Shown here: positions 1,115 through 62,076 of the stretch, piece after piece
Layout of the letters: each line of letters starts with the position of its first letter
Numbering within the stretch: the stretch's first letter is position 1
Source: Candidatus Heimdallarchaeota archaeon
GTDB lineage: Archaea > Asgardarchaeota > Heimdallarchaeia > Heimdallarchaeales > Heimdallarchaeaceae
Assembly: GCA_030603365.1 (NCBI GenBank)
Contig: JAUVXV010000003.1
Location: forward strand, 288,001-352,000
Direction of reading: 5' to 3'
Length of the DNA stretch: 64,000 bases
Position numbers and translations under genes: made by a program
The notes under the pieces: model-generated
Databases searched by the model: none
The model's input: the letters and a program-made list of their open reading frames with translations, nothing else
What the model was told of the DNA's origin: nothing

Positions 1115-2806
1115 ATGAGTAAAGGAATCAAACTAAAGACCATTCTTATTGGTATTCTCTTAATCAACTTTCAAATTCTAAATGTAGTTGTCTCTTCAAC
1201 CTCGACATTCTATCCTTTTAAAATTAACAACGATGTATACCAGTGGTTCTGGCATGGGTTAGCTGAAGCACCTGGACCCATTAGTGGAGAAGATGTAGTT
1301 TATTGGGGGGAGGATCTTGGACCTTATCATAATTATACAGAGTTAACATCTCGCTTATCTCTGATGAACGATACTTTTACTGATTTAGTTGATGTTTTTT
1401 CAATTGGAAAAACCTACCATGGACGGGATATTTGGTGTGTAAAATTAACTAATAAAACAGTTACAACGGCTAAAACTGAATTTTACATTGTTGGAGCACA
1501 TCATGCTAGAGAGATGATTTCAGTTGAAAACTGTTTATACTTTATGGATTATGTTATTTATTACTCATCTTTTGGTTTGTTTCAAGACTTATTAGCTAGT
1601 ACTGAGATTTACGTTATTCCTTTACTAAATCCAGACGGTCTCTCTATCATGCATTTTTATCCTGAACAGAGGAAAAATCTTAATCCTATTGACGATGATA
1701 ACGATGGTTTAAACGATACAGATATGGACGGTTTTCTTGATGATGAATTAGAACGAACATATTTCTGGAATGATTTAACTAATACTTCAGAAGTGAGAGA
1801 GAATGATTATGACGGTGACCTTCAAATTGCTGAAGATCTCCCTGGTGGAGTTGATCTTAATAGGAACTATGGTGCATATTGGAATGGAACAGAATCATCA
1901 TTAATTATGAGAGATCAAGACTATAGAGGAGAATCACCTTTCAGTGAACTTGAAACACAAATACTTCGTGATTTTATGATAAGGCACTCCTTCAATTTTG
2001 CTATAAGTATACATAGTGGTATCCGAGCAATTATTCCTCCTTGGGCACACAATGGATCTCTTCCACTGAAGGATGAACAAGAATTCAATGCTCTTTTAGG
2101 AGAATTAAAAACAACTTTAGGCTATCCATTATGGAATGAATCTGGAATGTATTTAGCCAATGGAGCATGGGAAGATTATTGTTATGCAAACCATGATATT
2201 ATAGGATTTACTTTCGAAGTTTATGAAGGACCATGGTCTGGTTCTTATTTTGATTTATATAATCCAGAAGGGTCTTACATTCTTTCTATCTGTGAAGAGG
2301 TTTTTGAAGGTTTGATTTACATGGCTTATGAGCCAAGATTAACATATACAAATAATTTGCCTTCAATTAAGGTCACCAATCCTTCAACAGTAAATCAAGT
2401 ATTTGAGAGTTATACGATCAGATGGACAATGTCAGATGGAGATGGAGACTCTCTCAACTGTTCTGTTTTTGTTTCCACTGATGGTTTACATTGGACAGTA
2501 TTGAAAACAAATTTGTTAGATGAATCCTTTTACTTCTGGGATGTGCAAAATGTGCCTGCTGGTTCTTATTATTTAAAAGTGGCAGTTTCAGATGGAAAAG
2601 ATTGGATAGCTGATACTAATGAAATACAACTCAATGTAAACAAAGAAGCTGAAAGCTCTCCATTTGCTTTCTGGTTACTTGCAGTTATATTTGGTGGTCT
2701 AGCTGCAGTTTTTCTCTTCTTTAATATAAGAAAATCCAAAGTTATTGGCAAGATTTGGGGTTCTGACCCATATGAGGATGAGACATCTAAGGAAGAAAGT
2801 TCTTGA
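1115..2806 (+). CDS. Secreted, membrane-anchored M14 zinc carboxypeptidase
   Basis: Signal peptide; HHARE (HxxE), NPDG, GVDLNRNY, PFSELET, SIHS and FTFE motifs; Asp-rich insert; Ig-like domain; C-terminal TM plus basic residues. Confidence 0.9.
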   Translation: MSKGIKLKTILIGILLINFQILNVVVSSTSTFYPFKINNDVYQWFWHGLAEAPGPISGEDVVYWGEDLGPYHNYTELTSRLSLMNDTFTDLVDVFSIGKTYHGRDIWCVKLTNKTVTTAKTEFYIVGAHHAREMISVENCLYFMDYVIYYSSFGLFQDLLASTEIYVIPLLNPDGLSIMHFYPEQRKNLNPIDDDNDGLNDTDMDGFLDDELERTYFWNDLTNTSEVRENDYDGDLQIAEDLPGGVDLNRNYGAYWNGTESSLIMRDQDYRGESPFSELETQILRDFMIRHSFNFAISIHSGIRAIIPPWAHNGSLPLKDEQEFNALLGELKTTLGYPLWNESGMYLANGAWEDYCYANHDIIGFTFEVYEGPWSGSYFDLYNPEGSYILSICEEVFEGLIYMAYEPRLTYTNNLPSIKVTNPSTVNQVFESYTIRWTMSDGDGDSLNCSVFVSTDGLHWTVLKTNLLDESFYFWDVQNVPAGSYYLKVAVSDGKDWIADTNEIQLNVNKEAESSPFAFWLLAVIFGGLAAVFLFFNIRKSKVIGKIWGSDPYEDETSKEESS

Positions 2807-2894
2807 GTTATGTTTAGAGTGATGCACAGTAAACAAATTTTTAAAACCATAGCGTATATTATGAATATTAGAGGAAAGGTATAGGGGTAATGTT

Positions 2895-4049
2895 GTGATA
2901 GATCCAACTTATGTTAATTTAAAGTATATAGTTGCCATTACTCTATTTATTGGTGGTCTAGTATCAGTTTACTGGGGGAGAAGAAGACAAAATCCTTTCT
3001 ATCTACTTTGGTCAATCTTCCTATTAACATATGGTGTTTTTCAAATAGTTGATGGAATGAATCATCACTTCGGTATATTTGATAAATTCTATGTACCCAA
3101 TCCGGTGTATGCAGATATTGTCAGTACAGACTTTTTATTATTCAGAATACTACAAGTAGTGCAAGCTTTAGCATTCATATCACTATTTGCAGCAAGTTTG
3201 GAACAATCGATGATTGTTCCTCCAAGATCTAGTAAAATAATAGCCGTTAGTTTAACAATTCTAGTGCTATATTTTGTTGTTATTCCTTTAGAAAATACTA
3301 TTTTTAGTTTTGGGACTCTAACAATATCCATCTATGATACTTTGTTTACTGAATTTTATGGCTTTATTTTTGGTTTCATTGTTTTATGTAGTTCATTTCT
3401 GCTTGTTCCAGTTGTTGTAAGGTATACTAAGTTATTCTTAACTTCGAAGAACAAGAGAATACTATGGAAAATGATTATTTCAATACTGCTAACTTTGTTA
3501 TTGGTAGGATTAGCATTTATAACAACAGTTAAGCGAAAAGTTGTAGAAAATGGTATGGATGAGAACGGATTTGCGATTTTTGAGATTGTTTACTCATTTG
3601 TTGTAGTATCAATAGTTGCTTTATATCAAAGCCAATCTGTATCTCATGGAATAGAGACTATACTAGTCGTTGATAAAGAGGGGAATCCACTCTTGGGTTA
3701 CTCTCCATTTAAAAAGAAAAGAATTTCATTTGAAGAGAAGATAATTGCAGCTTCAGGATATCTTGCAGGTTTATTCCATTTCATTCATGATTATGTAGCG
3801 ACTGAGTCTGATGATGAATTCAAGGAAATTAAGACAACATCCTCTACATTATCATTTTATTCAGGTGTTAATGTATTCATGATAATTCAAACCAGAATCT
3901 CTGGTAAATTGTTAGATAAAAGTACTAAATTAGCTTTATATGAGATTGACAAATTTCTAGTGGATTTTAAAGCTAATGAAATGCCAACAGAGGAGCAGAT
4001 TAGCGAGATTATCAAAGTGCTTGACAAAAACTTCTATTTAATGTCTTAA
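2895..4049 (+). CDS. ~7TM membrane protein with C-terminal longin/roadblock-like domain
   Basis: About 7 hydrophobic segments, then ILVVDKEGNPLL...ASGYLAGLFHFIHDY...FKEIKT, a pattern typical of Asgard longin-like domains. Confidence 0.6.
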   Translation: MIDPTYVNLKYIVAITLFIGGLVSVYWGRRRQNPFYLLWSIFLLTYGVFQIVDGMNHHFGIFDKFYVPNPVYADIVSTDFLLFRILQVVQALAFISLFAASLEQSMIVPPRSSKIIAVSLTILVLYFVVIPLENTIFSFGTLTISIYDTLFTEFYGFIFGFIVLCSSFLLVPVVVRYTKLFLTSKNKRILWKMIISILLTLLLVGLAFITTVKRKVVENGMDENGFAIFEIVYSFVVVSIVALYQSQSVSHGIETILVVDKEGNPLLGYSPFKKKRISFEEKIIAASGYLAGLFHFIHDYVATESDDEFKEIKTTSSTLSFYSGVNVFMIIQTRISGKLLDKSTKLALYEIDKFLVDFKANEMPTEEQISEIIKVLDKNFYLMS

Positions 4050-4091
4050 AATTCACTAAAATTTATATCTAATGAGATGTTATTGTAGTTA

Positions 4092-5408
4092 ATGCTTACC
4101 ATTGTCTTTGTTGTTGGAACCAGACCAGAGATTATCAAAATTGCACCTTTAATTCTCCAAGCTGAGAAAAGAAAAATAAACTATACAGTAATTCATACTG
4201 GACAACACTATGATGAAAATATGTCAGGTCAGTTTTTTACTTCACTTGGTTTAAGATTACTAGATACTAATCTAGAAGTAAAAGAAGAAAATTCTCACAC
4301 TAGATTAAGTGAAATGATCAGTAAATTAGGTGACGAGTTTATTAAAATTAAACCGACTATTGTTCTAGCGGTAGGAGATACTGTAAGTGTTTTAGCAAGT
4401 TGTCTTGCTTGTGTTCAAAATGAGATTCCTTTTGGTCATCTAGAAGCAGGACTCAGATCTTATGATCTAACCATGCCTGAAGAAAGAAATAGACGAATGG
4501 TTGATAGCATGTCTACACTCTATTTTGCTCCCTCAAGAATTGCAATAACAAATCTTTATTATGAGGGAATTAATCCAGATAGGATTTTTTATACTGGAAA
4601 TACAATAGTTGATGCTATTCGTATTTTCAAGGAACAACTGGATGAGAAAAATACTACTCAAGCTAATGAAATATTAGTAAAAATAAAGAAAAATTATATC
4701 TTATGTACAATTCATAGAGTATCGAATGTAGACAATGAAAAAAATCTACTTAATATCATTTCATTTTTATCTAAGTATACTCAGATTCCAATCCTATTTT
4801 TAATTCATCCAAGAACAAAGAAAAGGATTTTAGCTGTTGGAAAATTCGAATCACTTGAAAAGAATTCTAATCTCTTTATTTATGAATCAGTTGATTATTT
4901 CTCAATGTTGAAACTTCTCAGTAATGACCGATGTTTAATGGTTCTTACAGATTCTGGAGGGTTACAAGAAGAAGCTGCTGTTCTTAGAAAACCATGCATT
5001 ACTCTTCGACCCAATACTGAAAGACCAGAAACGGTTATGCATGAAATTAATACATTAGTTCCAGTTCAAGAGTCAAAAATCAAAATAGAAATAAGTAGAA
5101 TATTATCAGAAGATTTCAACTATCGTTTTGACCAGTTTGACTATCCCTATGGAAATGGTTATGCAAGCAATAAAATCCTAGATATCATTGAAACTTCTCA
5201 AAAAAATTTAACTTTTTCATCTCCTCACAATTACAAACATGGTTCGAAAACATTCCATCTTTTTGAGTTAGCTGCATCCATGAAGAAGGAAGAATTAGAG
5301 AATCAGTTTGATTGCCAAATTTCTCTAATTTATGATGGTGAAGGAAATCCCAGAGTTGTTAAAAACAAACTAAAAAAAGGAGATAGAGTAAGGATTTTGA
5401 AGGATTAA
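4092..5408 (+). CDS. wecB: UDP-N-acetylglucosamine 2-epimerase (non-hydrolysing)
   Basis: GTRPEIIK, HTGQHYD, HLEAGLRS, PEERNR, TDSGGLQEEA and TERPE motifs; short C-terminal extension. Confidence 0.95.
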   Translation: MLTIVFVVGTRPEIIKIAPLILQAEKRKINYTVIHTGQHYDENMSGQFFTSLGLRLLDTNLEVKEENSHTRLSEMISKLGDEFIKIKPTIVLAVGDTVSVLASCLACVQNEIPFGHLEAGLRSYDLTMPEERNRRMVDSMSTLYFAPSRIAITNLYYEGINPDRIFYTGNTIVDAIRIFKEQLDEKNTTQANEILVKIKKNYILCTIHRVSNVDNEKNLLNIISFLSKYTQIPILFLIHPRTKKRILAVGKFESLEKNSNLFIYESVDYFSMLKLLSNDRCLMVLTDSGGLQEEAAVLRKPCITLRPNTERPETVMHEINTLVPVQESKIKIEISRILSEDFNYRFDQFDYPYGNGYASNKILDIIETSQKNLTFSSPHNYKHGSKTFHLFELAASMKKEELENQFDCQISLIYDGEGNPRVVKNKLKKGDRVRILKD

Positions 5409-5410
5409 CC

Positions 5411-6406
5411 TTACCAATCTATTACACTTAAAGATTTCAAGAGAACTCTTATAGCTGCAAAAGTTGCTAGAGACCAGAAACCCATTAGAATTGCCTCTGA
5501 TTTTATTTTATGCAAAAATCTTGGAATAATATTTGCTGTAATTACTGTTCCAGCAGCCATTAAAATAACAATATCCCACTGAATTGAAACTGCTCCAGCT
5601 CCAAATAAATCAAGTGATCTAATTACTACTGCAAAAGGAGTTGCAAATAGAATGGTAAATGTTGAGGTTGCAACTGCAATTGCAGCGGGCATTCCGAGTG
5701 CCATTGTTAAAATTGGTACGTAGATAACTCCTCCACCTAAACCTAGAGTAGCTCCTACAAAACCTCCAATAATAGCAATAAAAACACCTGGAAGGAGTTT
5801 TGATTTGTATTTAAATTTGACTCCTCTTTTGTCTTCGAAATCACGATAGATAACTGTTTGTTGCCACCATGGTCTGTTCTTCTGTTCTTCATCACATTCA
5901 ATGTCTTGACATTCATCTTCTTCATTGATTTTTCCACTCCGTTTCTTTAACCAGCTGAGAAGTATCGTGGTCATTTTATACATGGCAATCGTAATCATTG
6001 TTGCACCAAAAATAATCTGAAAAATGTCCTTATCGACATCTTGTGTTACTAACCATTTAGAGAATATTCCTCCTGATACTGCACCAGGAATTGCAAAAAT
6101 CATAAATCTAAAAGCTACTTGATAATCAATTCTTTTCTCTCTGATATACGAAATTGATCCACTCAGAGCTGTAAAAACTATTACTCCTAAAGATGTTGCA
6201 CTCGCAGTACTTCCTAGCAGGCTAGGATTTGCATCATAGTTAGCTTGTCCTATCTGACTGATTAACAACCCTTCGAAAGCTATTAATAGAATTGGAACAT
6301 TAAGTAAACCTCCTCCTATGCCAAATGTAGGAGAGACTGCGCCGGTAAGTAATCCTACACCAAACAAGGCTAAGTAATGCCACCATTGAAAATATTCGAA
6401 CAACAT
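5411..6406 (-). CDS. TauE/SafE (TSUP) sulfite exporter family protein
   Basis: Duplicated GIGGG / GLGGGVIYVP motifs, ATS motifs, about 8 TM. Confidence 0.9.
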   Translation of the reverse strand: MLFEYFQWWHYLALFGVGLLTGAVSPTFGIGGGLLNVPILLIAFEGLLISQIGQANYDANPSLLGSTASATSLGVIVFTALSGSISYIREKRIDYQVAFRFMIFAIPGAVSGGIFSKWLVTQDVDKDIFQIIFGATMITIAMYKMTTILLSWLKKRSGKINEEDECQDIECDEEQKNRPWWQQTVIYRDFEDKRGVKFKYKSKLLPGVFIAIIGGFVGATLGLGGGVIYVPILTMALGMPAAIAVATSTFTILFATPFAVVIRSLDLFGAGAVSIQWDIVILMAAGTVITANIIPRFLHKIKSEAILMGFWSLATFAAIRVLLKSLSVIDW

Positions 6407-56828: not shown

Positions 56829-56991
56829 CGGTTAGAAGTGGTAATTTTGTTATTGAATATTTAGCATTTACTCCCAAGACTCTTAAGATACAAGGAAGGA
56901 TTGAGGTTATTACAATGATTGGAATGACTAGATAATCCTTATAATAGTTTATGTGTCTAATTATGTGAATAAAAGAAGAGAACGTGATTTG

Positions 56992-59160
56992 ATGAAAATA
57001 AAATACTCAATAATTATACCTACTCTCAGCATATTGCTTATTACTGCAATTGTCGTACCTCTGGTGGTTTTTCTCCCAGACAAAGATTCAAATGGATATG
57101 TGTCGTCTTATGGAGTATATGATAATTCAGCAGCAAGTCAGTATGTTGGTGAAAACATTTCAACGTATTTCGGTACATATTCACCACAAGATTTGGATTA
57201 TAATCCATCAATAATTCCTTCAAAAATCGAATCAGATCTAAGTAATGTTGATTTTCAAGGCTTAAGTATAGATTCAAGTTTGTATGAAACATTAGCAAAC
57301 TATGGGTTTGCAATAGTTGATGAAGGATATACTAGCATCTATAAAATATATGAGTGGTTTAAGGCAGATCCCTATTTCATAACAACTGATCTATGTCTTC
57401 ATACATTTCATTGGCTCTATGATGACAGTTTGAAATTATTGGAATTGATGTACCTTTATGAATTATATAAGGATTTAATAACAAATTTAAGAGCTGACCA
57501 GATTAGCTTAAACTCAACAATTACTGAACCTATTGTTCAAGAAGCGCTCAAAAAGAATATTGCATATTTGACAGTCGTACTCTATCTTCTAGATAACACC
57601 ACATCAATACCAAGTGAAGTAGAAAGCATGGTAAATACAGAATTGGCTAACATTGTTGCAGAAACACAAGCTTCTTCAGCAATACTAGAATATCAAGAGA
57701 ATTTTGCCCAGTATAAAGTAAGAGGACATTATACAGGTAATGAGACATTGGAAAGCTATTTTCAAGCATTAATGTATTCAGGAAGAATGGGATATTTAAT
57801 CTCTGAATCTGCAGTTGAACAAACCCTTATGACACTACTATTATGTTCATCATTTGATAATTCTTCTTTGCAGGATTTATGGTTTCAAATATACGAACCA
57901 ACCACATTCTATGTTGGTCAAACCTTAGATCTTACACCTTTCGAGATGTATAATATTTGGGTAAGTTTTGGGTCTCCACAAAGTGATCAACTAGCAAATA
58001 ATACCTTAGTTGAAGAGACAATTTCATTTGCAAGAAATTATGCAATTGAGCGAGAAAATATCCTCAATGTGGAAAGCATTTTTCCCTCTCCAGAAAGACC
58101 AATTACGTTTAAAATTATGGGTCAAAGATTAACACCTGACTATTATACTTTCCAAAATCTTCTTCATCCTATCGTCGATTCTAGAAACTTTCCGCAAACA
58201 TTAGATTTCTTTTCAGTATTAGGAAGCATTCGCGCAGAAGGTTTACTACAATCAGAAAATGATACCTATCCTTACTATGGGGAACAAATACTTAACTTAA
58301 GAGATGAATTTGGTAGTCTAGATTCAGAGGTTTGGGTGCAAAATCTGTACTGGATGTGGATTTATACACTATTTCCACTATTACAGACTCCAAGTGAGGG
58401 ATATCCTGGATTTATGTTGAATCATGCCTGGATAAATAAAGAGCTCATGACTACCTTGGGTTCTTTTGCTGAACTTAAACATGATAGCTTACTCTATGGT
58501 TATAGTGGATATGTTAGTCCTGCTGTTTTTCCAGATTATGGGTATGTGGAACCTTATCCAGAGATTTATGGACGATTAGTAAGTATGCTAGAGATGTTAA
58601 AGGATGGTCTTGATGCTAGAGGATTAATTTCTGCTAGATTGAAAGATAGGATTGAAAGGTGTTTAGAAGTCTTTGAATATTTAACAGATATTTCCATAAA
58701 AATTCTTAACAATGAAGAGCTTACTTCAGATGATCTTCAGGATATCCTTTATACAGGGAAAAGATTGTATGAAATTGTCGTTGATATGATTCCTGGTTCA
58801 TCATATGTGGATTCTAGCTTGACTCCCATGGCAGTAATTGCTGATATCTCGACTGACGATTTAGTTACTGGACACACTAAGGAAATTGCAGTAGGAAATC
58901 CTTTGGTTATTTACGTCATTGTTCAAGATTATGACGGTAATCTTTACCTAACAAAAGGTGGAACTTACTCATATTACGAATTCACTGTACCAAAAAATGA
59001 AATAATGAATGATGAAGAATGGAGGATGCTTTTAGAGTCTGATCCTCCTGAAATGCCTGATTGGATTCTGGATATAGAAACTGTGCTGATTGAATCAAGT
59101 AATATATTGTTAACTGTAATCATAAGATCTAAAGAAAAACTTCTCAGATTTTATTCATAA
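56992..59160 (+). CDS. DUF3160 domain-containing membrane-anchored protein
   Basis: N-terminal TM; FITTD, YKVRGHYT, GQRLTPD, AELKHDSLLY, GYVEPYPE, GGTYSYYEF, DEEWR motifs. ATG at 56992. Confidence 0.88.
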   Translation: MKIKYSIIIPTLSILLITAIVVPLVVFLPDKDSNGYVSSYGVYDNSAASQYVGENISTYFGTYSPQDLDYNPSIIPSKIESDLSNVDFQGLSIDSSLYETLANYGFAIVDEGYTSIYKIYEWFKADPYFITTDLCLHTFHWLYDDSLKLLELMYLYELYKDLITNLRADQISLNSTITEPIVQEALKKNIAYLTVVLYLLDNTTSIPSEVESMVNTELANIVAETQASSAILEYQENFAQYKVRGHYTGNETLESYFQALMYSGRMGYLISESAVEQTLMTLLLCSSFDNSSLQDLWFQIYEPTTFYVGQTLDLTPFEMYNIWVSFGSPQSDQLANNTLVEETISFARNYAIERENILNVESIFPSPERPITFKIMGQRLTPDYYTFQNLLHPIVDSRNFPQTLDFFSVLGSIRAEGLLQSENDTYPYYGEQILNLRDEFGSLDSEVWVQNLYWMWIYTLFPLLQTPSEGYPGFMLNHAWINKELMTTLGSFAELKHDSLLYGYSGYVSPAVFPDYGYVEPYPEIYGRLVSMLEMLKDGLDARGLISARLKDRIERCLEVFEYLTDISIKILNNEELTSDDLQDILYTGKRLYEIVVDMIPGSSYVDSSLTPMAVIADISTDDLVTGHTKEIAVGNPLVIYVIVQDYDGNLYLTKGGTYSYYEFTVPKNEIMNDEEWRMLLESDPPEMPDWILDIETVLIESSNILLTVIIRSKEKLLRFYS

Positions 59161-59708
59161 TTATGTTTATTTTCTTTCCACCAGAGAATCCAATTTTTTC
59201 TCAATTCATCTCTCTGTTTTTTATCTATTCCACCTACAAATGCCCACAAAGGATTATCAAACATTCTTCTTAGAATTACAATCTGACCAGTATGTCCCAT
59301 AATGTGCAAAGTAATCCGTTTTAACAAATCTGAAAGTTTTTCTTCTATTTCATCATGCGGGATTTCGTCAAATTTCTCCTTTGGAAGTGATTCTAGTTTC
59401 TTGAAAAATGAATCAGAAATCTGCAAGTGTTTATCAATTAAATCTGAAAAAGAGTAAGGGTAAGTTACAACTTTGTTTTTTTCAACCCCGTAAGCATAAT
59501 ATTCCGATTCTTCCTTTGATAGCGATTTATTTCCAGTATATATCTATAAATACAAATCAAAGTGTGAAACACAATGCCCTATTATCCAAGCAATGTGATT
59601 TGTGTCTTTTTGGATTTGTATAGTAATTAATTCAGGTAGTATCTCTTTGAATGACATTAAGAAATTTATTTCTGCAGTTTTAAAGGTAGAAATTAGAATA
59701 TCCTTCAT
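59151..59708 (-). pseudogene. DinB-family protein interrupted by a single in-frame TAG (codon 55)
   Basis: ATG 59708 MKDILISTFK...NHIAWIIGHCVSHFDLYL-TAG(59544-59546)-IYTGNK...YYAYG...LHIMGHTGQI; one frame of 186 codons. Confidence 0.75.
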
Positions 59709-59722
59709 GTTCGATCACCTCA

Positions 59723-60817
59723 TTATCTCCAGTCAAAGTAAAATGATTCCACTTTTTCGGGAAATTTTACATCTCTCATGTTGAAAACATCTAAATTAAT
59801 TTTCTTCCCGTAGAAAAAGAACTTTGCTTTTTTCAAAGGCTTCATATCAAAATAAGGAAAATATGGGGTTTGTAGACCATACCAACCTCTTTCATTAGAT
59901 GTTTGGCACAAATAGTGTGCTAAATTACTTGCTTCTTTAGTATTCAAACGATGAATATGCACCATATCAAGCCAACCATAAGGAATTTTATTTCCCATTC
60001 CTGCGAGAAGGAATTCCCAAGCAAGCATAAATCCATTTATTCTGCCTTCTTCATCCTCATGAACAACACAATTAACATTTGGATTCTTAAGCATCCATTT
60101 GAGATCTTCCAATTCAGGAACAATAGACAACTGATTTCTCTTTACTTGCTCTTGGATGATTTCAAACATATCTGGTATATCTTTCTCTTGGAATATCCTG
60201 ATTTGTTCCGAGTTGATAGTTTTAAATTTCTGAAATAATCTGAATACTAGTTTCTCATACCATCTTAATCTAACCACGGTTGCAACTTTATCTACATCAA
60301 AAGCTTTGATTACAAATTTAGTTAGAGTAATAATTCTTTGGAATGGAATACTCTTCTCTCTAGATACTGCTGTGGATACATCTAATCCATGTTGTTCAGG
60401 CTCATGAAGTGAAAAAGCTCCATCGTAACCTTTTGCATCCCCAATTTCAAATAATTTCTTTCCCATTCCTTTAGCTAAACCCTTTTTCTGATGATGAGAA
60501 TGAACACATAACCACGAAGGGACTGCGAATTTGTATATTTTATCTTCAATAGATAATTTTCGAGGAATTGCACCAATAAAGCCTACAATTTTTCCAGAAG
60601 GCTTGTGAATTGCTCTGACAAATAGATCTCTATCAATAGAAGGCGCTCCATAAATTGTGTGGAAAGTTTCCTCTGAAAAGGTAATTGATGCTCCCTCTTC
60701 TAAAGCAGTCTCGTCGGCAAGAAAAGCACTTGTAATGAGTTTAGCAAGGCTGTCAAAATATTCTTCTTCTAATTTGAATTGTTCAATTAAATACTCTGAA
60801 TCTTCATTATTTGGCAT
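59723..60817 (-). CDS. Tandem-GNAT acyltransferase resembling eukaryotic glycylpeptide N-myristoyltransferase
   Basis: [10 protein letters not shown]...[14 protein letters not shown] in the N-domain; [12 protein letters not shown]...EGRINGF and LKKAKF...VFNM in the C-domain. Confidence 0.7.
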   Translation of the reverse strand: [364 protein letters not shown]

Positions 60818-60933: not shown

Positions 60934-62076
60934 ATGATAAAAATCAATAAAGTTGTTCTTTTAAGTCGGTGTGTCTTGGTTTTGTTCCTAATATTTTCCT
61001 TATATGACAATCTGTTCATAGTTTCATCGTTAACACCTTCTGACAGTAATGGTAGTGTATATCTGCAAGAGAATGCACTTCTCTTTAACGAAACTGCAGC
61101 ATATAATCATATTGAATCACAGCTTGATTTCGGATTTCGTGTTCCTGGAACTTCAGATCACTTCAACTGTTCTAAGTGGATAAACGATCAAATATCTATA
61201 CATGTTGATGAAACAATTCAACATAATTTTACAATCCAAAAAGAAAATCAATCTAGTTACAGTTGTCAAAACATCCTTGGGAAACTGAACACTGAGAAGG
61301 ACAACATAGTTATTCTAGCATCTCACTGGGATTCAAGAAACGTTGCAGAGAAAGATTACTTCAATCAAAGTCTCCCAATTCCTGGGGCTAATGATGGTGC
61401 GTCAGGGGTAGGGGTGTTAATAGAGCTAGCTAGAGTTTTGAAATTGTATCAGGAGTATCTTGATTGTGAAGTTTGGTTTCTTTTCCTAGATGCAGAGGAT
61501 CAAGGATATTCTGGAGGAATGTATGGTTTAGAAGGTTGGAACTGGGCTGAAGGAGCAATGAATTTTACAGAGAATATCGATGATTTTTATAACTCTCAAC
61601 AAGAAGAAATTGAATGTTTTATTTTATTGGATATGGTAGGTGGTTTTGATTTAGAGTTCATTCAAGAAAGTAGAACAAATAATGATTTACATAAAGCTAT
61701 TTTTGGTCTAGGTCAAAATCTAGGATATTCAGTTGCCTTTCCAGAAAATCCGAAGAAAATGTCTATTACAGATGACCATGTTGCTTTTGATGAGATTGGG
61801 ATACCAGTAATCGATTTGACTATTGATTTTATTGCAGGTAATTGGACATTCCATCATACTCATTCAGATAATCTAAGTAATATCGACACTAAAAACCTTA
61901 AAATTACAGGTCAGACTATTGAAGCTTTTATTAAAACATATTATGCAGAAGGAGATAATCTTCAGTGGAATGAAGGATTCTTTTCAAATACGTTTATTGT
62001 TATGTCTGTGATAGTTTTTGTTTTAGTAGCTGTTTTCACAGTAAATTTCTTGAGAACTAAAAGAAGAAAATCCTAG
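60934..62076 (+). CDS. Secreted M28 family peptidase / glutaminyl cyclase-like, C-terminally anchored
   Basis: ASHWDSR, GANDGASGVGVL, FLDAEDQG, LLDMVG, DDHVAF, HHTHSD; signal peptide; C-terminal TM plus KRRK. Confidence 0.88.
   Translation: MIKINKVVLLSRCVLVLFLIFSLYDNLFIVSSLTPSDSNGSVYLQENALLFNETAAYNHIESQLDFGFRVPGTSDHFNCSKWINDQISIHVDETIQHNFTIQKENQSSYSCQNILGKLNTEKDNIVILASHWDSRNVAEKDYFNQSLPIPGANDGASGVGVLIELARVLKLYQEYLDCEVWFLFLDAEDQGYSGGMYGLEGWNWAEGAMNFTENIDDFYNSQQEEIECFILLDMVGGFDLEFIQESRTNNDLHKAIFGLGQNLGYSVAFPENPKKMSITDDHVAFDEIGIPVIDLTIDFIAGNWTFHHTHSDNLSNIDTKNLKITGQTIEAFIKTYYAEGDNLQWNEGFFSNTFIVMSVIVFVLVAVFTVNFLRTKRRKS

Follow-up and report, generated by a model that had tools for sequence, protein, structure and literature searches.

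The subject of this analysis is a gene encoding a 364-aa protein, P0001, composed of two GNAT domains and located in a stretch of 64,000 nucleotides (henceforth the window) of the Candidatus Heimdallarchaeota archaeon assembly GCA_030603365.1 (contig JAUVXV010000003.1, positions 288,001 to 352,000 of the forward strand). P0001 is homologous to the eukaryotic N-myristoyltransferase (NMT; EC 2.3.1.97, PF01233 and PF02799 in Pfam, Nmt1p in yeast, NMT1 and NMT2 in human) over both lobes. Sequence comparison and a predicted structure suggest that it is probably a soluble, monomer-sized N-acyltransferase dependent on acyl-coenzyme A (acyl-CoA), and that it belongs to a prokaryotic 'NMT-type' double-GNAT family, present in Asgard archaea and in many bacteria. 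NMT is commonly treated as a hallmark of Eukaryota and giant viruses. The first-pass annotation of the window, made from the DNA sequence without database searches, had likened the protein to human NMT1 over its whole length, a resemblance that proved to be true homology in both lobes (Pfam, profile matches in the PDB, Foldseek).

Homology of P0001 to N-myristoyltransferase

The search of Pfam identified the N-terminal domain of NMT above the cut-off (PF01233, 39.1 bits vs 25, E 8.7e-10; residues 18–118, spanning only positions 32–129 of the 160 in the model), whereas the match to NMT_C (PF02799) remained below it (13.5 bits vs 27.9, E 0.059; residues 199–264 only). The N-lobe also matches the Acetyltransf_9 family (37.8 bits), and NCBIfam assigns no family to P0001. 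The phmmer search of the PDB sequences retrieved almost exclusively NMTs, with the P. vivax enzyme as the best match (E 1.7e-7, residues 57–269). The HMMER alignment of residues 74–116 to residues 219–261 of human NMT1 is free of gaps, and in the profile alignments residues 200–272 fall on the start of the NMT C-lobe. When the family profile (A1, an alignment of 53 Asgard homologues) was compared with the PDB, about 37 distinct NMT sequences were the sole significant matches (E from 5e-13 to 1e-5), the best other proteins being AAC3-I (E 0.02) and Eis (E 0.9). The hhalign comparison of A1 with a set of 18 eukaryotic NMTs gave 98.8 % and E 8e-17 over 233 columns. The first two segment matches to NMT1 given in the first-pass annotation were reproduced by HMMER and hhalign; the third, comprising the C-terminal hairpin and tail, was not recovered by sequence methods and found its support in the structural alignment.

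The model of P0001 (predicted local distance difference test score, pLDDT, 93.2; predicted template modelling score, pTM, 0.90) was used for a Foldseek search, in which all of the top 50 matches were NMTs (E ~5e-22). Among solved folds NMT comes nearest, with a lead of about 9 Z units; the mycobacterial tandem GNATs MAB_4324 and Eis score about 9–11 Z units below it. The best match in structure and profile is neither Eis, FemABX or another bacterial tandem GNAT, named beforehand as the outcome that would speak against NMT, nor MshD, and Eis displays no significant sequence similarity to P0001. Eis also carries an extra SCP2-like domain, forms a hexamer and acts on aminoglycosides and proteins. 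The features that P0001 would share with NMT comprise the double-GNAT architecture with CoA bound by the N-lobe only, the oxyanion strand of the type x-x-[FW]-L-C-V-H, an equivalent of the Ab-loop, and, in the model, a C-terminal residue in the same register.

The catalytic base of NMT is the carboxylate of its own C-terminal residue (PMC7048800). The 53 homologues in the alignment share a single terminal column, where Arg364 is invariant; Trp363 before it is nearly so. In the structural alignment residues 1–364 of the P0001 model run to the exact last residue of NMT in six species, Arg364 being paired with human residue 496 (Gln496), A. fumigatus 492, L. major 421, yeast 455 (Leu455), C. albicans 451 and P. 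vivax 410. The last residue of the human deltaC2 truncation is 494, and here the alignment stops at model residue 362. The terminal carboxylate of P0001 is thus predicted to occupy the position of the catalytic carboxylate of NMT, and the earlier suggestion that the chain ends close to that site holds, with exact register, in the predicted model.

HisAT/NAT16 and the archaeal Ta0821 resemble P0001 in being double GNATs of similar size that hold acyl-CoA in the N-lobe and use a beta-bulge oxyanion hole, and HisAT-type relatives also exist in Asgard archaea. They differ in that no match to P0001 is seen at the sequence level, and in the C-terminus: in HisAT the chain stops once the last strand is complete, and a Trp from the beta7–beta8 hairpin fills the spot of the NMT C-terminal residue (PMC12219266). 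In the predicted model the P0001 tail aligns with the NMT tail. Unexpectedly, the same authors also encountered double-GNAT structures of the NMT type, defined by a C-terminus located at the active site, among archaeal and bacterial proteins of the AlphaFold database; their examples include Thorarchaeota and several bacterial proteins, and they gave no family analysis (PMC12219266). In the literature searched this is the sole mention of prokaryotic NMT-type structures, and no paper on an Asgard NMT was found.

Predicted active site and candidate substrates

The signatures EINFLC and KFGxGDG of NMT were correctly noted in the first-pass annotation as only partly kept, the corresponding segments of P0001 being VPSWLCVH and KFFFYGKK. 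In the former, Trp102 and Leu103, the backbone of which would form the oxyanion hole, fall on the positions of NMT Phe247 and Leu248, and Ser101 takes the place of the conserved Asn246; family members have S, A, G or R at position 101, while Pro100 is invariant. The strand is followed by the invariant His109 and by a motif that agrees with the classical CoA-binding motif of GNATs, Q/R-x-x-G-x-G/A (PMC12219266); it occurs in the N-lobe only, its Gly113 and Ala115 are nearly invariant in the family alignment, and it reads Q-x-x-G-x-A where NMT exhibits R-x-x-R-x-A. The equivalent of the Ab-loop has acidic residues and contains a 3-residue insertion (E40–G42). Phe32 and Phe47, both nearly invariant in the family, stand at the positions of NMT Tyr180 and Tyr192. 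These two tyrosines, together with Asn246, Thr282 and Leu495, form the strictly conserved pocket for the substrate Gly2 (PMC7048800). In P0001 the whole set is replaced (Phe32, Phe47, Ser101, Pro140 or Gln142, and Trp363). Glu139, which is nearly invariant and found also in the more distant members of the family, lies at or next to the 'platform' position of Thr282 and may act as an additional general base. In the C-lobe the invariant residues include R207, D213, G262, W267, G281, W282, Q316, P318, P321 and Y322.

At both ends the protein departs from NMT. In the structural alignment it begins at the equivalent of residue 150 of the human and 73 of the yeast enzyme, and thus lacks the B'A' segment of about 40 residues (109–149 in the human NMT1 core) with its FWxTQPV motif, nearly invariant in the 18 NMTs, as well as the ribosome-binding extension; and it ends in Trp-Arg, while the tail of NMT is hydrophobic, with Leu or Gln as its last residue.

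In the mechanism that we propose, acyl-CoA would bind to the N-lobe, the backbone amides of Trp102 and Leu103 would polarise its thioester carbonyl, and the primary amine of the acceptor would sit in the cleft that separates the two lobes. The carboxylate of Arg364 would deprotonate this amine, directly or via a water molecule and perhaps with the assistance of Glu139, and the deprotonated amine would then attack the thioester. The side chain of Arg364 probably anchors the tail, or else binds an anionic group. The canonical NMT substrates, i.e. proteins starting with Met-Gly, are unlikely acceptors.

The genome itself gives little encouragement to the idea, raised in the first-pass annotation, that Arf-like GTPases starting with Gly may be lipidated. 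Among its 45 matches to small GTPases, the four best Arf-like proteins (139–150 bits to Pfam Arf) begin with MSFMSNFSRWL, MSMFGSFSSWL, MSMFASLFSR and MSFLLNLF, sequences that resemble amphipathic helices and carry Ser2 rather than Gly2. Starts of the Ser2 type have likewise been reported for Asgard Arf-family proteins (PMC11914678; bioRxiv 2024.02.28.582541), and in one of these two studies membrane binding of an Asgard Arf was shown to be independent of myristoylation. Among 2844 crude open reading frames (ORFs), in which the first ATG was taken as the start and the starts were not curated (hence weak evidence), 3.2 % have Gly2, Ser/Thr occurs at position 6 in 15 % of the MG proteins vs 12 % of the rest, and the PROSITE-like N-terminal MG motif is not enriched (14 proteins vs about 12 expected). 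With Ser2 in the Arfs and MG counts at chance, there is no sign of a glycine myristoylome, and, with the Gly2-pocket residues lost as well, lipidation of Gly-start Arf-like GTPases is disfavoured. On the side of the donor, the genome has genes for two ligases of the AMP-binding type and for a single acyl-CoA dehydrogenase, so that donors beyond acetyl-CoA are possible.

Could P0001 still be a true protein N-terminal myristoyl or fatty-acyl transferase, an Asgard precursor of NMT that serves membrane targeting, maybe with a specificity other than for Gly? The closest fold, the modelled C-terminus in catalytic register, the acidic Ab-loop equivalent and the acyl-CoA ligases and dehydrogenase of the genome are all in line with it; the replaced Gly2 pocket, the missing B'A' segment, the score of NMT_C, the MS starts of the best Arf-like GTPases (which agree with the literature) and the chance level of MG starts make it very unlikely. 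A rather better case, although one that we still regard as unlikely, can be made for a small-molecule N-acetyl- or N-acyltransferase (with an amino acid, a polyamine, an amino sugar or another metabolite as its acceptor) that shares with NMT only the architecture. Most of the characterised prokaryotic double GNATs, among them MshD, Eis, the GlmA-type enzymes and HisAT, act on small molecules, the CoA motif of P0001 is of the classical and not the NMT version, the cleft residues are highly conserved, with an invariant terminal Arg that could bind a carboxylate or phosphate, and the family has a patchy, accessory-gene-like spread in metabolically versatile bacteria and Asgards. HisAT, similar in size, acts on a free amino acid and yet accepts myristoyl-CoA (PMC12219266). 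On the other hand, no sequence match to such enzymes was found at E < 0.01, and no biosynthetic operon surrounds the genes at the loci examined. For the acyl-CoA-dependent N-acyltransferase proposed here we lean slightly towards a peptide-like amine as the acceptor, because the fold is much nearer to that of NMT than to that of any double GNAT acting on small molecules.

Several points weigh against the proposed function and mechanism. The proposal is based on the comparison of sequences and on a predicted structure, data that do not separate an acetyl from a long-chain donor, or a peptide from a small-molecule acceptor. The placement of the C-terminus derives from alignment ranges and conservation in a predicted model, in which the pLDDT is 90 for residues 351–360 and drops to 74 for residues 361–364, and AlphaFold may be biased towards NMT-like packing. 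The forced global hhalign alignment, which uses sequence only, pairs FYFDWR with the penultimate LYNWK strand of NMT. The equivalent of Thr282 is ambiguous between the alignments (Pro140 or Gln142), and in neither case is it Ser or Thr. Finally, no conserved operon was seen around the family genes at the Asgard and bacterial loci examined. The pairing of FYFDWR with LYNWK was rejected in favour of the structural alignment and the secondary structure of the model; the former was given more weight because the hairpin 334–346, the loop and the short terminal strand of the model mirror the topology of NMT. Gene context was likewise abandoned as a route to function, for want of a conserved operon in Asgards or bacteria.

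Distribution of the family and the origin of NMT

The nearest homologues of P0001 are 70–83 % identical, come from entries labelled Heimdallarchaeota, Heimdallarchaeaceae or 'Asgard group', and carry no other name than 'GNAT family N-acetyltransferase'. In 100 homologues, each of about 364 aa, the start and end positions coincide with those of P0001. The search of 1.84 billion cluster representatives yielded 73 matches. The distant tier of the family (330–365 aa, 21–26 % identity to P0001) is partly bacterial and includes one member from Sigynarchaeota; another was found in a Myxococcota metagenome-assembled genome (MAG), with a 51 % identical relative in a Deltaproteobacteria MAG (two-sequence alignment search). 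The alignment of the 28 members of this tier has one common end column, which is occupied by Arg in about half of them, and its profile (A3) aligns with A1 over 346 columns up to the terminal Arg (hhalign 100 %, E 3.8e-60). The distant tier also scores better against NMT (99.7 %, E 3e-26) than does the Asgard family.

In Myxococcota, a full-length member ending in HLR was found at E <= 1e-20 in 49 of the 301 genomes sampled. The nearest clusters of the ESM Atlas, by embedding and shape, are 87–100 % bacterial, with template modelling (TM) scores of 0.81–0.90 over residues 5–364, and come from Aminicenantota, Myxococcota, Acidobacteriota, Pseudomonadota, Planctomycetota and Verrucomicrobiota; in the same comparison eukaryotic NMT, with a TM score of 0.81, ranks behind the bacterial clusters. 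The prokaryotic 'NMT-type' proteins (Myxococcota, Aminicenantota, Acidobacteriota and Pseudomonadota clusters and a second, Sigyn-type Asgard clade) thus share with P0001 the full-length profile match, the size and the fixed C-terminal end, often Arg, while the Asgard clade, at its low identity to them, forms a distinct branch with an FYFDWR tail of its own. Among Asgard archaea the family was matched in 62 of 400 genomes, and its presence is patchy: it occurs in 26 of the 30 genomes of the archaeon's own taxonomic family and, in two further families, in 12 of 12 and 10 of 14, and several sister families have no match at all. The members of the Asgard clade carry Heimdall-, Loki-, Thor-, Gerd- and Sigyn-labels.

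Although the gene is present as a single copy in the genome under study, the family has expanded through duplication in some Asgard lineages: one genome (G080) has two tandem copies, and several others have 2–4 (four in G087). Disruption has been observed as well. In a closed genome from another genus of the same taxonomic family (L056) an insertion of about 1.75 kb interrupts the NMT-like gene at about residue 144; it carries a 500-aa ORF on the opposite strand, related to Cas12f1/TnpB (TNB domain, PF07282, 36.6 bits). A sister genome (L057) shows an inversion of an internal segment of the NMT-like gene. This lineage can therefore dispense with the gene.

P0172, a 404-aa metagenomic member of the distant tier, has an insertion of about 40 residues between the lobes, adjoins a heliorhodopsin gene and passes the Pfam NMT cut-off; P0129, its relative in the 90 % cluster, scores 42 bits. 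P0168 and P0174–P0179, from Joint Genome Institute (JGI) metagenome contigs of about 1.2 kb, are unusually short true NMTs of 364 aa (Pfam NMT 145 bits, NMT_C 104 bits), which resemble ESM Atlas clusters of mainly Nucleocytoviricota (332–362 aa) and form the deepest NMT branch in the tree.

The tree, unrooted, was calculated with IQ-TREE (LG+C20, posterior mean site frequency model) from 65 sequences (19 Asgard, 27 distant, 6 Myxococcota and 13 NMT); the sequences left out were two very long ones of the distant tier, five NMTs almost identical to others and four wrongly called ORFs. The NMT-like family and NMT share an ancestor. NMT is monophyletic (100/100), with a stem of 1.94 substitutions per site, and lies outside the crown Asgard clade, which is itself supported by 100/100 and groups with the Sigyn-type clade (99/96). 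The NMT stem joins the centre of the tree, where short branches that lack support separate one half of 'Asgard-type' (68/26) from another of 'bacterial-type' (45/19). Trees constrained to unite NMT with the Asgard or with the bacterial sequences were better by 7.4 and 6.8 log-likelihood units, respectively, than a quick free tree, which was suboptimal by about 7 units and was replaced by the careful one; the approximately unbiased (AU) test rejects neither (p-AU 0.74 and 0.73). Since both constraints fit equally, the tree gives NMT no settled attachment point, and an origin of NMT as sister to the Asgards or to the bacteria is equally compatible with tree and tests.

These results bear on two views of the ancestry of the gene. 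According to the first, already weighed above, the Asgard gene is a precursor of NMT, as the first-pass annotation had proposed; the AU test does admit an Asgard-sister NMT, but no less a bacterial one, the full-length family with its fixed C-terminus is widespread in bacteria, the distant tier, in part bacterial, is no worse a match to NMT than the Asgard family, and in Asgards the gene is scattered and in one lineage disrupted by TnpB. The claim of an Asgard precursor is accordingly not supported. A stronger form of it, in which the Asgard clade would be the nearest surviving relative of the NMT stem and already acylated protein N-termini, e.g. the amphipathic helices of Ser- or Met-start Arf-like proteins, is very improbable; were it true, enzymatic N-terminal lipidation for membrane targeting would predate eukaryotes, with the specificity for Gly and the B'A' segment added later. 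In the second view the family is primarily bacterial and the Asgard copies, perhaps also the NMT stem, came from bacteria by horizontal transfer, so that the Asgard gene would be uninformative about eukaryogenesis. This is a possibility to be taken seriously, if a somewhat doubtful one. It accords with the bacterial ESM Atlas clusters from at least six phyla, with the frequency of the family in Myxococcota against its absence from whole Asgard families, and with the higher scores of the distant tier against NMT. However, the Asgard clade is old and coherent across genomes with five Asgard labels and groups with a second clade of Asgard type, the direction of transfer is unreadable because the tree is unrooted, and most members of the distant tier carry no taxonomic label.

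Genomic context and implications

The assembly (3.65 Mb in 17 contigs, 89 % complete) has the NMT-like gene on contig 13, and the G+C content is about 33 % across the whole window. The ORF lies where the first-pass annotation had placed it; it is on the minus strand, with an ATG start and the stop codon at 59723–59725. The gene is monocistronic and divergent from that of an M28-family peptidase (110 bits) with hydrophobic segments at both termini, from which it is separated by a spacer of 116 bp; a functional link between the two is not evident. Further neighbours encode GH20, DUF3160, beta-lactamase-fold hydrolase and M20 peptidase proteins. The 735-aa DUF3160 protein (492 bits) has a membrane segment at the N-terminus, and the 3' end of its gene overlaps by 10 bases with a convergent 91-aa ORF that has no match in Pfam. 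A relative from Gerdarchaeota (L052) has DinB and GH20 genes in a loosely similar neighbourhood. In one clade of Myxococcota (L053) an AidB-like acyl-CoA dehydrogenase gene lies on the same strand two genes upstream of the NMT-like gene, an arrangement not seen at the other bacterial loci examined. The coordinates are collected in Table 1.

Table 1. Coordinates of the NMT-like gene, its predicted elements and other loci (positions refer to the window unless a locus, genome or contig handle is given)
Feature	Position	Strand	Basis
Complete gene of the 364-aa NMT-like double-GNAT protein (P0001)	59723..60817	-	ORF list and translation
N-terminal GNAT lobe, residues 9–172, predicted acyl-CoA-binding/catalytic	60302..60793	-	Pfam; model elements E9–E172; NMT N-lobe alignment
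Ab-loop equivalent, residues 32–47	60677..60724	-	hhalign column mapping
Beta-bulge strand VPSWLCVH, residues 99–106 (NMT EINFLCVH)	60500..60523	-	ungapped HMMER alignments to human NMT1 and yeast NMT
Putative CoA pyrophosphate-binding motif Q110-K-K-G113-L-A115	60473..60490	-	read from sequence
C-terminal pseudo-GNAT lobe, residues 206–346, predicted acceptor-binding	59780..60202	-	model elements E206–E346; weak NMT_C; NMT C-lobe structural alignment
C-terminal tail, residues 347–364, end FYFDWR	59726..59779	-	homologue alignment and structural alignment
M28-family peptidase gene	60934–62076	+	
DUF3160 protein gene	56953–59160	+	
91-aa ORF	59151–59426	-	
Arf-like loci L002–L005	C6:19648–20163; C5:33392–33916; C9:91753–92271; C11:95345–95848		
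P0172 gene, loci L032/L033 (JGI metagenome contigs)	5027–6241 / 4864–6078		
ORFs of the split gene and its insertion, L056 (G016:C1:1137300–1142300)	999–1511; 1669–3171 (-); 3262–3936		
Gene with inverted segment, L057	G015:C1:1010600–1013700		
Tandem family copies, G080	C78:12632–13708; C78:13855–14934		
AidB-like ORF, L053 (G574:C1:8538000–8552000)	2951–5170	+	

The story of an 'Asgard precursor' is tempered by these findings, as bacteria have at least as large a share in the family as archaea and the presumed Arf substrates lack the glycine that would be required; the Asgard gene is no evidence for Gly-start lipidation in Asgards or for direct ancestry of NMT. What emerges is a conserved prokaryotic family predicted to share the unusual design of NMT, with the C-terminal end of the chain itself extending to the active site, and which may thus make the origin of N-myristoylation approachable by experiment. 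The acyl donor, the acceptor and the part played by the invariant Arg at the C-terminus are all testable, and the bacterial members matter here because some of them lie in closed myxobacterial genomes of 9–10 Mb, maybe from species that can be cultivated.

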